Source: a virus. From it: a stretch of 34,928 nucleotides of DNA. A program made the translations under genes and the position numbers. Location: the IMG/VR virus record IMGVR_UViG_2773857672_000001, positions 1 to 34,928 of that record. One strand, given 5' to 3'. Every line of letters starts with the position of its first letter. The stretch's first letter is position 1. Positions 3,543 through 26,863 of this stretch are shown here, in pieces. The notes beneath the pieces are model-generated. The model was given only the letters and a program-made list of their open reading frames with translations, was not told the origin of the DNA and ran no database searches.

Positions 3543-5353
3543 CAGTAGATCTCCATGACGCCGGTATTGCGGGCGGTCTGCCCTTCCAGCGGCTCGTTGT
3601 GCAGGGCATGAAAGAGGGCCCACGCGAGATCCGCGTGGCCGGTGGTGTCGTTGCGTCCGGCCGTGTAGGTGAACTGGCGGCCGCTGGCGGTGGTGGTCTT
3701 GCGAATGGCCATCAGCGACTGGGCGACGTCGGTCCAGCCGGCGTCAAATTCGAGCCGGCCGTTCTTGATTACGTCGTAGGCCTTGAGCACCAGGCGCGTC
3801 TTGACCTCGGGCGAGTAGCTGAAGGTGGTCAGGTTGGGAAAGAACTGGCGCACCAGCTGGGCCACGCCGCTGCCCATGCCGGTGACATCGATGCCGATAT
3901 AGGTCACCCAGTAGCGCTGGCAAACCTGGCGGATCGCCTCGGCCTGGGCGGCGAAGTCCATCCCGCGGAACTGGTGGCGCTCGAGCACGCGAAACTTGCC
4001 GCCCGGTACCAGGGGCGGTGCGACCACCACCAGGCCGGCGGTGTCGCCGGTCTCGGCGGGGTCATAGCCGACCCAGACCGGGCGCTCACCCAGCGGCCGG
4101 GCGGCGAAAGGTTTGTAGTCCTCGGCCCACTCGACCCAGCTGTCCACCATGCAGGGCTGCAGCATGGCGAGCGGGAAGATGCTCGCGCCGTCGTCGACGA
4201 ACTGGCACATGAGCAGGTTCTGGAAGGCCTCGGCCGAGTACTCGAGCTTGAGCTCCTCCAGGTCGAACAGGTCGCAGCCGCGGGACTCAGCGTCCAGGAT
4301 GGTGACGATCTGCCGCCAGATCCGGTCCTCGCAGAGCCGGCCCTCCTGCAGAGCCTCATGGGAGACGTCCAGCTTGAGGTGCTGGGCGACCGGCTTGCCC
4401 TTGTTGAAGCGCTCGCCGGTCCAGAAGGTGTAGGCCTCATGGGCCATGGAGCTGGGCGTCGAGAAGTAGGTCCGGCGGTATTGCTTCTGCATGGCCATGC
4501 CGCTGGCCACCTTGTTCAGCTCCTCGAAGCGGAAGGTCCAGAAGAATTCGTCGAAGTAGAAGTTGCCGTGGTAGCCCTGGGCGGTGCGGGCATTGGTGCC
4601 CAGGAAGTGCAGCTCGGCGCCGTTGGCGAGGACGATCGGATCCCCGGTCACATCGACGCCACAGACCTCCCGGGCGAAGGCCTGGATATACGCCTTGAAG
4701 ATATGCGCCTGGTTCTTGCTGGCCGACAGGAAAATCTGGTTGCGCCCGGTGATCAGCGCATCCAGGAAGGCCTCGCGAGCAAAGTAGTAGGTGGCGCCGA
4801 TCTGCCGGCTCTTGAGGATCGCCCGGGTCCGCTGCTGGCCGGCCCGGTACCAGTCGAGCTGGTAGCCGAAGCACTGGTCGCGGAAGGCGCTCTCAAGGGC
4901 CTCGATCTGCTCCTCGGTGAACTCGTTGCGTGCGGCCTTCTTCTTGGGTCCGGCATTGCGGTTGTCCAGCTTGGGATTGAGCTCGGCCTCGGTACCGCCG
5001 CCCTGGAAGCGCTGGATCCGCGCCTGGCGCTCCAGCTGGCGATGGAGCAGATCGATCTCCTTGAAGTCGCTGCCGGTCTTGCCGTCCTTGAGGATCAGCT
5101 GCACCAGGCGCGCCTCGAGGGCGCCGCCGATCCGCTCCACGTTGTCGGCCCGGTCCCATTCGTCCCTGGCCTTCCAGCTATGGACGGTCTTTTCCTTCTC
5201 CTCGATCGCCTCGGCGATCTCCGTCACCCGCCAGCCCATCCAATACAGATGCTTGGCGCGCCGACGCACGTCCATCAGCAGGTCAGTGGACGGGGCGGCC
5301 GCCGGCGTTTCGGCCGGGCTTGGCAGGGGCGAGGAATCGGATAGGCTTTTCAT
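3542..5353 (-). CDS. P: Terminase large (ATPase) subunit (P2 gpP homologue)
   Basis: 603 aa. ILKSRQIGATYYFAREA matches the remembered gpP Walker-like segment. Divergent from the scaffold gene as in P2. Confidence 0.9.
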   Translation of the reverse strand: MKSLSDSSPLPSPAETPAAAPSTDLLMDVRRRAKHLYWMGWRVTEIAEAIEEKEKTVHSWKARDEWDRADNVERIGGALEARLVQLILKDGKTGSDFKEIDLLHRQLERQARIQRFQGGGTEAELNPKLDNRNAGPKKKAARNEFTEEQIEALESAFRDQCFGYQLDWYRAGQQRTRAILKSRQIGATYYFAREAFLDALITGRNQIFLSASKNQAHIFKAYIQAFAREVCGVDVTGDPIVLANGAELHFLGTNARTAQGYHGNFYFDEFFWTFRFEELNKVASGMAMQKQYRRTYFSTPSSMAHEAYTFWTGERFNKGKPVAQHLKLDVSHEALQEGRLCEDRIWRQIVTILDAESRGCDLFDLEELKLEYSAEAFQNLLMCQFVDDGASIFPLAMLQPCMVDSWVEWAEDYKPFAARPLGERPVWVGYDPAETGDTAGLVVVAPPLVPGGKFRVLERHQFRGMDFAAQAEAIRQVCQRYWVTYIGIDVTGMGSGVAQLVRQFFPNLTTFSYSPEVKTRLVLKAYDVIKNGRLEFDAGWTDVAQSLMAIRKTTTASGRQFTYTAGRNDTTGHADLAWALFHALHNEPLEGQTARNTGVMEIY

Positions 5354-23562: not shown

Positions 23563-24006
23563 ATGATGATGGCCCTCGGCAATTTCATATTCAGCCTCTA
23601 CACCCTCGCCTACCAGGAGCTCCAGCGGCAGACCGACTACCGCCACGCCAGCAGCTCCCGCGTGGGCGCCGCGCCAGCGCGCCAGTTCCTGGGCAAGGGT
23701 GACGACAGCATCACCCTGCCCGGCTGGCTTGCGCCGGAGCTCGCGGGGACGCCCAGCAGCCTGGACGTGCTGCGCTACATGGCCGGTACCGGCGGCGCCT
23801 GGCCGCTGATCGAGGGCAGCGGGCGGATCTACGGGCTCTGGGTCATCGAGAGCATCACCGAGACCAAGACGCTCTTCTTCCAAGACGGTACCCCGCGCCG
23901 CATCGAGTTCAGCATCGCCCTCAAGCGCGTTGACGACGACACCGGCCGCGAGCTGCTCGGCGTCGGCATTGCCGGCATGGGTACCGTGCTGAGGAAGCTG
24001 CTGTGA
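23563..24006 (+). CDS. U: Tail protein U
   Basis: 147 aa. The MALGNF.F start and GKGDDSITL.G motif are typical of gpU. Confidence 0.82.
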   Translation: MMMALGNFIFSLYTLAYQELQRQTDYRHASSSRVGAAPARQFLGKGDDSITLPGWLAPELAGTPSSLDVLRYMAGTGGAWPLIEGSGRIYGLWVIESITETKTLFFQDGTPRRIEFSIALKRVDDDTGRELLGVGIAGMGTVLRKLL

Positions 24007-25277
24007 TCCAGGAGCTGCTCGACACCGCTACCGGCCAGCTGCGCACCCTCGGCCGCGACCTGGTCCAGGGCGCCGCCTATGCCCAGGCGCGCTACCAGAT
24101 CCTGGTCGACGGCAAGGACATCAGCGCCCTCATCACGCCGCGGCTGATCAGCCTGGATCTGACGGACAACCGCGGCCTCGAGGCCGATCAGTTGAGCCTG
24201 GTGCTGTCTGACCACGACGGCCTGCTGGCCATCCCACCCCGGGGCGCCAAGATCCGCCTCTGGCTGGGCTGGTCCACCACCGGCCTGATCGACAAAGGCA
24301 GCTACATCGTCGACGAGACCGAGCACAGCGGCGCGCCTGATGTCCTGAGCATCCGCGCCCGTAGCGCCGACCTGCGCAAGGGTCTCAAGACCAAACGGGA
24401 CCAGAGCTACAGCGCCACCACCCTCGGCGCCGTGCTGCGCGGTCTGGCCGCGCGCCAGGGACTCACCCCGCTCATCGCGCCCGCCCTCGAGGCGCAGCAG
24501 GTCCTGCAGCTGGACCAGACCGGCGAATCAGATGCCAACCTGCTGACCCGTCTGGGCGAAGACTATGACGCGGTGGCCACTGTGAAAGCCGGGCGGCTAC
24601 TGTTCCTCCCAGCCGGCGGCGGCAAGGCGGTCAGCGGCGCCGATCTGGGCCACGTCACCCTCACCCGCCAGGACGGCGACCAGCACAGCTACCTGCAGGC
24701 CGATCGCGAGAGCTACGATGCCGTGCGGGCCTTCTATTACGACGTCAACAGCGCCAAGAAGCAGGAGGCTATCGCCGGCGGTGGCGAGAACGTGAAGGAC
24801 CTGCGCCACACCTACGCTGACCAGCTCTCCGCCCTGCGCGCCGCCCGGGCCGAGTGGAACCGCCTGCAGCGCGGTACCGCTACCCTCACCTACCAGCTAG
24901 CCCTGGGCCGCCCGGAGCTCATGCCCGAGCTCACCTACACCCTGCAGGGCGTGAAGGCCGAGATCGACGCCATCATCTGGTACGGGGGGAACGTGCAGCA
25001 CAGCCTCACCGCGGACGGCGGCTACACCACGCGCCTCGAGCTGGAAGCCAAGCTGCCGGAAGACCTGGTCGCCGACCTGGTCGACGAGATCCAGGGCGAC
25101 TTCACCGGCATCATTGCCTACTACCGCGACGCCAAGACTGGCAAGGAGCACACCCTCACCGAGGGTGACCAGAGCAAGCCGCGGCGGTTGCGGCATCTGT
25201 ACGCCACCAAGGCCACGGCGAAGCGGGCGGTGGAGCGGGAATGGAAGAAGCTACAGGCTACTAATGCTCAGGCCTGA
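24003..25277 (+). CDS. D: Late control / tail protein D
   Basis: 424 aa, the last gene of the F operon, with gpD-family length and context. Confidence 0.85.
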   Translation: MIQELLDTATGQLRTLGRDLVQGAAYAQARYQILVDGKDISALITPRLISLDLTDNRGLEADQLSLVLSDHDGLLAIPPRGAKIRLWLGWSTTGLIDKGSYIVDETEHSGAPDVLSIRARSADLRKGLKTKRDQSYSATTLGAVLRGLAARQGLTPLIAPALEAQQVLQLDQTGESDANLLTRLGEDYDAVATVKAGRLLFLPAGGGKAVSGADLGHVTLTRQDGDQHSYLQADRESYDAVRAFYYDVNSAKKQEAIAGGGENVKDLRHTYADQLSALRAARAEWNRLQRGTATLTYQLALGRPELMPELTYTLQGVKAEIDAIIWYGGNVQHSLTADGGYTTRLELEAKLPEDLVADLVDEIQGDFTGIIAYYRDAKTGKEHTLTEGDQSKPRRLRHLYATKATAKRAVEREWKKLQATNAQA

Positions 25278-25477
25278 TCAATTTGGCGGTTCGGCCCGGG
25301 CCCACCTCTCGGGCCTGGAGCCGAGCGTAGGACGTCGGCGAAGCGCAAGATGCTGGACTGCTCTCGCTCCTGCAGGGACCGAAAGCTATCTAGAAGCTGC
25401 TTTTCGCGGCCGCTGACCACCATAAGACTACCTGAACCTCGACTCACCATAGCGCCCTGCCAGACCATCTGCTCCAT
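25268..25477 (-). CDS. 69-aa hypothetical protein under an SOS box (candidate Tum-like antirepressor)
   Basis: ATG at 25477 preceded by GGGAGGG 8 nt upstream. A LexA-box lies 21-36 nt upstream. Its 3' end converges on and overlaps gpD by 10 nt. Confidence 0.5.
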   Translation of the reverse strand: MEQMVWQGAMVSRGSGSLMVVSGREKQLLDSFRSLQEREQSSILRFADVLRSAPGPRGGPGPNRQIDQA

Positions 25478-25497
25478 CCAATAGACCCTCCCAATTG

Positions 25498-25513
25498 CTG
25501 TATGTGCATACAG
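25498..25513. promoter_or_regulatory. LexA (SOS) box CTGTATGTGCATACAG
   Basis: Fits CTGT-N8-ACAG with conserved TAT/ATA flanks. On the minus strand it reads TACTGTATGCACATACAGCA. An adjacent 6-2-6 inverted repeat GTGATC-CC-GATCAC lies at 25520-25533. Confidence 0.7.
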
Positions 25514-25594
25514 TACATTGTGATCCCGATCACGCCAATGGCGAAAGCCGAACGGTTAGCTATGTCCGGTGCGGCGGGTGATCTGGCTGGCCTA

Positions 25595-25643: not shown

Positions 25644-26204
25644 TCATTTAGAGCTTAGGCTATCAACAAGCTTGTTCAGTTGCGGCTCTTTGTAATAAAC
25701 ATTTTCAAAACTCTTCGACCAGTGATCTAACTGGATACTTCCAGATTTTTCTGGCGAAGTAAGAGCGGAAAAGGAATCTACGGAAATATGTCCATTGATA
25801 ACCGACAGTGCTTTTTCGCGAGTCGCTTTAACCTCAACCTTCGGCGACTTCAGATAAACAACCTCTGACTTACCTGGCGTAAACTGAAGCGGAAACGCCG
25901 TTACGGTTATGCTATTTGCATTCGTATGAATGAAGGTACGATATACCGCGTACACCGCCGCACGCTTAACTTCATAGGCAGCATTATCCGCTGGCTCGTT
26001 CGGGAAGACCTTCGGCGAGATCTGCACGGTGAGCGGATCCTCCTTGAGCACACGGAACGTGCCGTTCTCCTCGGAGAAGTCGCCCAGATCCTCAATCATC
26101 TCTCTTACACCAGAGTATTGAATAGGCTCTAGATCATTTGCATAAGAAATTGACGCAAATAAAAAGAGCGCCGGAAGGGCAGCAACCTTTCCAACAGATA
26201 TCAT
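25644..26204 (-). CDS. Secreted (Sec signal peptide) 186-aa protein co-transcribed with the repressor
   Basis: MISVGKVAALPALFLFASISYA|ND signal peptide with no lipobox Cys. SD AAGGA. Only 15 nt separate it from the repressor stop. Strongly AT-rich relative to the phage. Confidence 0.7.
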   Translation of the reverse strand: MISVGKVAALPALFLFASISYANDLEPIQYSGVREMIEDLGDFSEENGTFRVLKEDPLTVQISPKVFPNEPADNAAYEVKRAAVYAVYRTFIHTNANSITVTAFPLQFTPGKSEVVYLKSPKVEVKATREKALSVINGHISVDSFSALTSPEKSGSIQLDHWSKSFENVYYKEPQLNKLVDSLSSK

Positions 26205-26219
26205 AACTATCCTTAATGT

Positions 26220-26555
26220 TTATTCAGAAGCTTGCGAAAGAGCCCAAACGAGACGTTCAATAGATGCCCGATCAACTTCGGACATTTTACGCATTGCCTG
26301 TATGACTTTTGTTTCCGAAGAGTTGAGGTCAGACACTGTTTGCGGCTTTCGCTCGCCATACAGTAGATACCAGATATCTACGCCAATCTTTTCGATAGCG
26401 GCCAAATACGCAACGTCGGGGCTGCGCTCATCCTTCTCGTAAAACCATTGAGTGTTTTTGGCAACACCACCCAATGCGGCGAAGTCGGTCTGGTTGTATC
26501 CCAACCGCTTTCGCTCCTCTTGGAGCCGAGACCCAATTCCCACTTTTGTCACCAT
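26220..26555 (-). CDS. Immunity repressor, XRE/Cro-CI-type HTH, no peptidase domain
   Basis: IGSRLQEERKRLGYNQTDFAALGGVAKNTQWFYEKDERSP is a classic HTH_3 pattern. 111 aa from the ATG at 26555. Divergent from the Ner/Cro-like gene. Confidence 0.75.
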   Translation of the reverse strand: MVTKVGIGSRLQEERKRLGYNQTDFAALGGVAKNTQWFYEKDERSPDVAYLAAIEKIGVDIWYLLYGERKPQTVSDLNSSETKVIQAMRKMSEVDRASIERLVWALSQASE

Positions 26556-26601
26556 CCTGGACTTGACTTTACCATCTGAGTGGTAAAGACTCCGCCTTGT
26601 G

Positions 26602-26633
26602 TCACACGAAACCACACTAAATCACACGAAACC
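26602..26633. promoter_or_regulatory. Two perfect 12-bp direct repeats TCACACGAAACC spaced 20 bp apart (candidate operators)
   Basis: Copies at 26602-26613 and 26622-26633, in the 83-bp gap between the repressor and Cro-like genes. Confidence 0.55.
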
Positions 26634-26638
26634 GAACT

Positions 26639-26863
26639 ATGCCGAACGGATACCCAACTGAGCAAGCTTGTGCCGCTGCGCGCGACCGCCTTAAGCGCCT
26701 TGGGTTGAGTGCCAAGGACTGGGCGCAACAGAACGGACTGACCCCCAGCACTGTTTACGCAGTGCTGAATGGCCAGAAAAAATGCCTTCGCGGTGAGTCC
26801 CACAAAGCGGCAGTGCTGCTGGGGATGAAAGAGGGTGAAACTTCAGCCGTGGCGGAACAGTAA
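26639..26863 (+). CDS. Ner/Cro-like small DNA-binding protein (Apl/Cox functional position)
   Basis: 74 aa. LSAKDWAQQNGLTPSTVYAVLNG..KCLRGESHKAAVLLGM resembles the Ner/Nlp family HTH. First gene of the early operon. Confidence 0.6.
   Translation: MPNGYPTEQACAAARDRLKRLGLSAKDWAQQNGLTPSTVYAVLNGQKKCLRGESHKAAVLLGMKEGETSAVAEQ

Follow-up and report, generated by a model that had tools for sequence, protein, structure and literature searches.

LexA-controlled antirepressors that act on non-cleavable repressors are known from phage 186 (Tum), from phage N15 (AntC) and from the Gifsy phages, where they are small proteins (PMC3121763). The antirepressors GfoA, GftA and GfhA of Gifsy-1, -2 and -3 are under direct LexA control, are about half the size of Tum and inactivate short, uncleaved XRE repressors of the DicA/RacR type (PMC3121763). 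In the phi106-family Bacillus phages, AimX, which is partly under LexA control, blocks the oligomerisation of an XRE repressor, AimC, via its C-terminal two-helix domain, and the authors liken the pair to SinI-SinR; AimX of phi106 is only 29 amino acids (aa) long (bioRxiv 10.1101/2025.11.23.689978). The locus compared here with these systems is a 69-aa open reading frame (ORF), ORF69, in IMG/VR record IMGVR_UViG_2773857672_000001, a complete virus record of 34.9 kb with terminal repeats, the full 34,928 nucleotides of which are referred to as the window. An earlier note on this DNA had proposed ORF69 as an SOS-inducible antirepressor analogous to Tum. Based on the present analysis, ORF69 is most likely a real SOS-controlled gene and the induction trigger of the prophage. 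The best explanation, to which we give an even chance, is that the protein would be made under SOS control and counteract the repressor as a decoy of its tail, in the way of SinI and AimX.

LexA-type operator and coding evidence for ORF69

In form and in its place on the promoter, the LexA box proposed in the earlier note corresponds to a LexA operator, and it is kept together with ORF69 in related phages. The sequence CTGTATGTGCATACAG at 25498-25513 fits CTGT-N8-ACAG and reads TACTGTATGCACATACAG on the minus strand, with the ATACAG end as described; the ATG (25477-25475) and its GGGAGGG Shine-Dalgarno sequence (25492-25486) were likewise found as reported. This is the sole CTGT-N8-ACAG in the complete record. 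The bare motif is not significant, with one match against 0.46 expected and at least one match in 37 of 100 shuffles. The fuller minus-strand site TACTGTAT-N4-ATACAG (14 bases) gave one match against 0.00 expected and was recovered in none of 100 dinucleotide-preserving shuffles. In gammaproteobacteria the LexA operator is a palindrome of 16 bp, CTGT-N8-ACAG, whose inner flanks are rich in TA. The box, as CTGTATGCACATACAG, agrees at 13 of 16 positions with the LexA consensus CTGTATAAATATACAG of P. aeruginosa (PMC13114513). Its edge lies 20 nucleotides (nt) from the ATG of ORF69.

A sigma-70 promoter is predicted on the same strand, with a −35 box TTGGCG (25538-25533), a 17-nt spacer and a −10 box TACTGT (25515-25510) whose six bases open the LexA site. 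A simple consensus scan for promoters did not pick it up, as the hexamers match at 7 of 12 positions only. The block from CATTGGCGTGATC to GATCACAATGTACTGT is invariant between two clades in which the upstream intergenic DNA is only about 50-60% identical. The CTGT and ATACAG elements are invariant in all nine related loci and the centre of the box drifts, being ATGCAC, GCGCGT or GCACGT; half-sites that are kept around a drifting centre are what one would expect if LexA acted on a promoter here. The Shine-Dalgarno sequence is retained in the relatives as GGGAGGG, GGGAGAG or GGAGGG. Taken together, the site is very probably a working LexA operator for ORF69.

The spacer of the promoter contains the palindrome GTGATC-N2-GATCAC, of which no second perfect copy was found in the window. 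Its arms are kept across divergent clades, with AATCAC in one arm of one isolate, and the two central bases vary. Nothing like it was found in the pR/pL region, and as an operator for the repressor it was rejected; a second regulator of the ORF69 promoter may bind there.

The arrangement is similar to that of p95-tum of phage 186, another P2-family phage with a repressor that does not cleave itself, and LexA repression of this promoter is experimentally known. The annotated −10 box of p95, TACTGT, also opens a 20-nt LexA site, TACTGTATGTTTATACAGTA, which shares 16 of 20 bases with the ORF69 operator. The distance from site to start codon is 18 nt in 186 and 20 nt here, and a Shine-Dalgarno sequence of the GGAGG type is present in both. 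As for Tum, a LexA-repressed promoter would lie directly upstream, judged here at the sequence level by geometry and site. The two loci differ in that ORF69 lacks the DinI-like half of Tum and lies between gpD and the immunity module, whereas tum follows the replication gene; the target here would be a 111-aa XRE repressor with a helical tail and not 186 CI. The earlier note had remarked that ORF69 is half the size of Tum. The sizes are correct (69 aa versus 146 aa), but as an objection the remark carries little, the Gifsy antirepressors (PMC3121763) and AimX being small as well. The Gifsy proteins resemble ORF69 by description, as small LexA-controlled proteins directed against short XRE repressors, but they come from lambdoid Salmonella phages, in which a dinI-linked operon well away from the immunity region carries their genes. 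They share no curated family with ORF69, and the profile libraries used name no such family.

Nine further Pseudomonas contigs carry ORF69. Four come from metagenomes or viral records, two are NCBI isolate genomes reached via the repressor cluster, two are Logan assemblies of the lineages of these isolates, and one is a second divergent contig. ORF69, the promoter block and the box are conserved together in all nine, isolates of P. oryzihabitans included, and in every locus found the repressor and the 186-aa gene upstream of ORF69 are the same. It has exactly 69 codons without indels throughout, at 62-96% amino acid identity, and its start, Shine-Dalgarno sequence and stop are conserved. Substitutions are distributed over the three codon positions as 5/5/21 between the window and locus L001 and as 15/14/36 between the window and L002; in the former comparison 17 codon changes are synonymous and 11 non-synonymous. 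Scans of bacterial species genomes by peptide pattern and by promoter block found no ORF69. The NCBI annotation omits the gene in both isolate genomes, CP183397.1 (L013) and GCA_028641015.1 (L015). In the first of these, of P. oryzihabitans, ORF69 is intact at 5028-5237 and the neighbouring secreted-protein gene of 186 aa (4406-4861) is called as 151 aa only.

An antisense frame on the plus strand (25350-25484, 44 codons, Cys-rich) is open in all related loci as well, sharing its third positions with ORF69, and its synonymous and non-synonymous counts are similar to those of ORF69 or slightly worse. The minus-strand frame is preferred because its start, Shine-Dalgarno sequence, stop and length are conserved, because its conserved core (residues 15-50) reaches past the antisense ORF, because gene callers call ORF69 on Logan and ENA contigs, because of a weak collinear match to the 59-position family phrog_23693 (E = 5e-4), and because promoter and operator face ORF69. 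The antisense frame is probably a by-product of the conservation of ORF69.

The repressor and its resemblance to ORF69

The earlier note had described the repressor as about 111 aa long and without an S24 peptidase domain, and this was borne out, HTH_3 being its sole Pfam match. Judging from its domain content the repressor is not able to cleave itself, and lacking S24 it would need a trans-acting inducer. Its start was called in three ways within 26220-26615, giving 94 aa (TTG), 111 aa (ATG at 26555) or 131 aa (GTG at 26615). The 94-aa call truncates helix 1, and the alignment of homologues favours the 111-aa form.

In the AlphaFold2 (AF2) model, the repressor consists of a five-helix helix-turn-helix (HTH) domain (residues 7-66), a linker and two C-terminal helices (79-89 and 93-109). 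The best full-length match of this model in the PDB, found with Foldseek, was SinR in the SinR-SinI complex (1b0n_A, E = 3.5e-4, 106 columns). The modelled architecture is of the SinR type, with an N-terminal HTH domain and a C-terminal two-helix hook, and SinR of B. subtilis is itself 111 aa long. A weak match to the DicA family was also obtained. The repressor family has members in P2-like phages that infect Pseudomonas, Burkholderia, Ralstonia and E. coli, and these have a tail motif in common, E-x2-LL-x2-YR-x-L...R-x2-VL.

The core of ORF69, REKQLLDSFRSLQEREQSSILRFADVL, fits this tail motif. With hhalign, residues 21-56 of ORF69 were paired with residues 77-111 of the repressor (P = 6e-4, probability 28%), and MAFFT independently aligned ORF69 and the repressor tails in the same register. 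In this alignment the hydrophobic positions coincide, L28, L29, F32, L35, I43, F46 and L50 of ORF69 standing opposite V84, I85, M88, M91, I99, L102 and L106 of the repressor. A hidden Markov model (HMM) built from 12 repressor tails scored three ORF69 variants at 12.1-12.5 bits, a level reached by 1 in 15,000 composition-preserving shuffles. Run against 1,531 stop-to-stop ORFs from six frames (152,836 residues from the window and the loci collected up to then), the same HMM placed the ORF69 copies at 10.4-11.6 bits, right behind the repressors, and the next match followed at 7.8. The resemblance of ORF69 to the repressor tail appears weak but specific.

In its own AF2 model, ORF69 has a disordered N-terminus, a single amphipathic helix at residues 23-52 (pLDDT about 90) and a disordered tail rich in Gly and Pro. 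No match to it was obtained in Pfam, NCBIfam, PADLOC or the PDB, and against PHROGs there were weak matches to families of unknown function only. The three libraries Pfam, NCBIfam and PADLOC being empty for it, ORF69 stands outside the curated antirepressor families (ANT/KilAC, AntA, Rha and the ImmA/IrrE protease). BLASTP against 186 Tum gave no alignment at E<=100, in agreement with the absence of similarity reported before. A profile search of 1.84 billion representative proteins for remote homologues returned ORF69 itself and two repeat-protein artefacts, and tblastn of the phage collection with ORF69 returned nothing. A mixed profile of ORF69 and repressor tails yielded one extra ORF69 clade, P0046. 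A wider family of stand-alone tail proteins, looked for with the same profile, was discarded: the other matches were repressors and apparently truncated repressor calls. ORF69 is, by these searches, a new sequence family inside a known kind of circuit.

Two described pairs provide the model for such a resemblance. SinI is a small helical partner of SinR that resembles the repressor's own tail; unlike ORF69 it is outside LexA control and serves a chromosomal biofilm switch, and the similarity of ORF69 to the tail of the phage repressor is much weaker than that between SinI and SinR. In the AimX-AimC pair (PDB 9sf2), the very small helical ORF adjoins the repressor gene and has a LexA site immediately before it, and AimC is an XRE repressor in which a linker joins the HTH domain to a C-terminal oligomerisation domain of two helices. 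This pair differs from the present locus in belonging to a Gram-positive siphovirus, within an arbitrium (AimR/AimP) module that is absent here. In addition, aimX lies antisense to aimC and overlaps it; ORF69 has the direction of the repressor gene and follows it at 740 nt. AimX has no sequence relation to ORF69.

Proposed circuit and alternative explanations

In the lysogen, the ORF69 promoter would be kept off by host LexA on the operator, which covers the promoter's −10 box and start region. Upon DNA damage, RecA-stimulated cleavage of LexA would free the promoter and the 69-residue protein would be made. Its amphipathic helix (about residues 21-54) would imitate the two-helix C-terminal oligomerisation tail of the 111-aa SinR-like repressor and take the position of a second repressor subunit on that tail. 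The oligomeric repressor, the form required for binding the operator, would then come apart, releasing the early operon with its Cox-like, CII, Ogr-like and primase genes. LexA binding, SOS induction of the prophage, contact between ORF69 and the repressor and the loss of repression are all steps that we infer, and each element of the mechanism has an experimental precedent elsewhere, in Tum, AntC, the Gifsy proteins and AimX-AimC.

The proposal of an SOS antirepressor made in the earlier note is partly supported by the operator, its conservation and the non-cleavable repressor, but the analogy with Tum gives way: the resemblance of the ORF69 helix to the C-terminal tail of the repressor suggests a concrete SinI/AimX-like mechanism in its place. 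The suggestion of a new antirepressor family stands at the level of sequence, ORF69 being unrelated to Tum and to all curated families; the kind of circuit is already known. That ORF69 is an antirepressor of any kind is reasonably likely. A more specific idea, that it descended from or converged on the C-terminal tail of its own repressor to become a LexA-gated decoy subunit, is put forward tentatively and is rather doubtful.

If correct, the proposed circuit would account for the sensing of DNA damage by Pseudomonas prophages of the phiCTX type, whose repressors are short and non-cleavable. An orphan, unannotated protein family would join the LexA-controlled antirepressors, and tail mimicry of the SinI/AimX kind, demonstrated so far only in Firmicutes, would extend to Gram-negative P2-family phages. 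The invariant GTGATC-N2-GATCAC palindrome would add a second regulatory input. In laboratory strains, the induction of such prophages could also be controlled simply by deleting ORF69 or expressing it ectopically.

Several observations weigh against the decoy mechanism or parts of it. The tail resemblance is weak in terms of hhalign probability and identity (about 22%), and the ORF69 profile is shallow (Neff 1.4). A BLASTP comparison of ORF69 with its own repressor gives no match, and AF2 predicts one continuous helix and not a hairpin as in the repressor tail. The codon-position evidence alone leaves the coding strand unfixed, since the antisense frame of 44 codons is open too. The centre of the box is richer in GC than the consensus, most so in the L002/L023 clade, and all ORF69 loci share one immunity type. 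CTGT-N8-ACAG is absent from phiCTX, Dobby, BR319a, D14A and OQ658368, and Menos, FUB5a, a Ralstonia phage and E. coli phage 520873 have no LexA-type site or poor ones only. As phiCTX, Dobby, BR319a and D14A lack the box, the repressor family is not generally dependent on such a module; with OQ658368 added, the module of LexA box and ORF69 would be a lineage-specific acquisition and not a family trait.

The alternative that survives best, itself rather unlikely, holds that ORF69 is under SOS control but encodes a host-directed accessory protein, for instance a small toxin, an inhibitor of division or a protein that modulates RecA or LexA as DinI or GIL01 gp7 does, the prophage being induced by another route. 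Many LexA-controlled prophage genes are indeed cargo, such as the pair of genes for 185 aa and 132 aa in Pseudomonas phage Sirocco, relatives with the same repressor family do without any LexA box, and ORF69 has no homology to characterised antirepressors. On the other hand, no DinI, toxin or defence signature was found in ORF69 with Pfam, NCBIfam or PADLOC, the repressor tail is the only specific similarity found for it, and it is strictly linked to one immunity module. No further candidate SOS input was found in the phage either, and ANT, ImmA and Tum-like genes were absent from the Pfam-scanned ORFs, which covered the early and immunity region but not all late genes.

An SOS-induced antirepressor that works without tail mimicry, by recruiting a protease or, like Tum and CarS, by covering the HTH domain or the surface that binds the operator, is less probable again. 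The operator, conservation and linkage evidence serves this explanation equally well, and both the low hhalign probability of the tail resemblance (28%) and the single AF2 helix without a hairpin are in its favour, but the sole measurable similarity of ORF69 is in register with the tail, all hydrophobic positions included, and the repressor is SinR-like. That the box is a chance or decayed palindrome beside an unexpressed ORF, or that the product is an RNA, the SOS transcript running antisense into the end of gpD and interfering there, is quite improbable: a bare CTGT-N8-ACAG is expected 0.46 times per window, no terminator is seen 3' of ORF69 to stop a transcript from entering gpD, the NCBI annotation omits the gene and the antisense frame is open as well, but none of 100 shuffles contained the full 14-base site, the flanks diverge around an invariant promoter block, the start, Shine-Dalgarno sequence, stop and length of the ORF are kept with 17 synonymous against 11 non-synonymous changes (window versus L001), the conserved core reaches beyond the antisense ORF, and there is the weak collinear PHROG match.

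Genomic setting and related phages

The phage is a member of the P2 family of the phiCTX-like type (Citexvirus). The DNA of gpD is about 80% identical to that of phiCTX, Dobby, BR319a and Sirocco. The 90% cluster of the repressor has members annotated in Pseudomonas oryzihabitans and in unclassified Pseudomonas genomes, which points to a Pseudomonas of the P. oryzihabitans group as the host. The features of the locus are listed in Table 1.

Table 1. Features of the ORF69 locus and its surroundings, with positions in the window.
Feature	Position	Strand	Remarks
gpD	24003-25277		late genes end here
ORF69	25268-25477	minus	69 aa
Shine-Dalgarno sequence GGGAGGG	25486-25492	minus	8 nt before ATG
LexA-type operator TACTGTATGCACATACAGCA	25496-25515	minus	20 nt, core CTGT-N8-ACAG at 25498-25513
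Inferred sigma-70 promoter of ORF69	25510-25538	minus	read from sequence
Perfect palindrome GTGATC-N2-GATCAC	25520-25533		inside spacer of ORF69 promoter
Gene for 186-aa secreted protein	25644-26204	minus	low GC
XRE repressor	26220-26555	minus	111 aa
Rightward early operon			Cox/Apl-like HTH gene, CII-like gene, Ogr/Delta-like gene, primase
Integrase			at the far end

ORF69 is convergent with gpD, the 10-nt overlap lying inside the palindrome TCAGGCCTGA. Terminators were found neither after the 186-aa gene nor after ORF69, so that a transcript of ORF69 would run antisense into gpD. The early operon had been described as 186-like, with a CII gene and a B-type activator, and this agrees with the matches of its CII-like gene (phrog_101, 1.8e-41) and its Ogr/Delta-type gene (phrog_603, 6e-19).

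The low-GC module of repressor and 186-aa gene is flanked by a 17-nt inverted repeat with 94% complementarity (25666-25682 and 26655-26671), whose arms fall within the end of the 186-aa gene and the beginning of the Cox-like gene. This repeat may be the trace of a module exchange. In the divergent early-promoter region (26566-26587 and 26602-26639), an 8-6-8 inverted repeat, CTTTACCA-N6-TGGTAAAG, was found together with two copies of TCACACGAAACC at 20-bp spacing and a partial copy between them. The repressor and the Cox/Apl-like protein may have their operators in these repeats.

LexA-type boxes were also seen in two related phages. In Pseudomonas phage Sirocco (OR683410.1, locus L022), the box CTGTATATGCATACAG at 775-790 lies about 140 nt upstream of the 185-aa and 132-aa gene pair, in a cargo slot near cos. 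As this pair is unrelated to ORF69, a LexA box alone is no proof of an antirepressor. Burkholderia phage Carl1 (ON642070.1, locus L009) encodes a homologous repressor with 43% identity, and a perfect LexA box, CTGTATAAACATACAG (257-272), is located upstream of a gene for an ImmA/IrrE metalloprotease (422-937). The latter may encode an SOS-controlled repressor protease, and would then represent another route to a trans-acting inactivator of the repressor.

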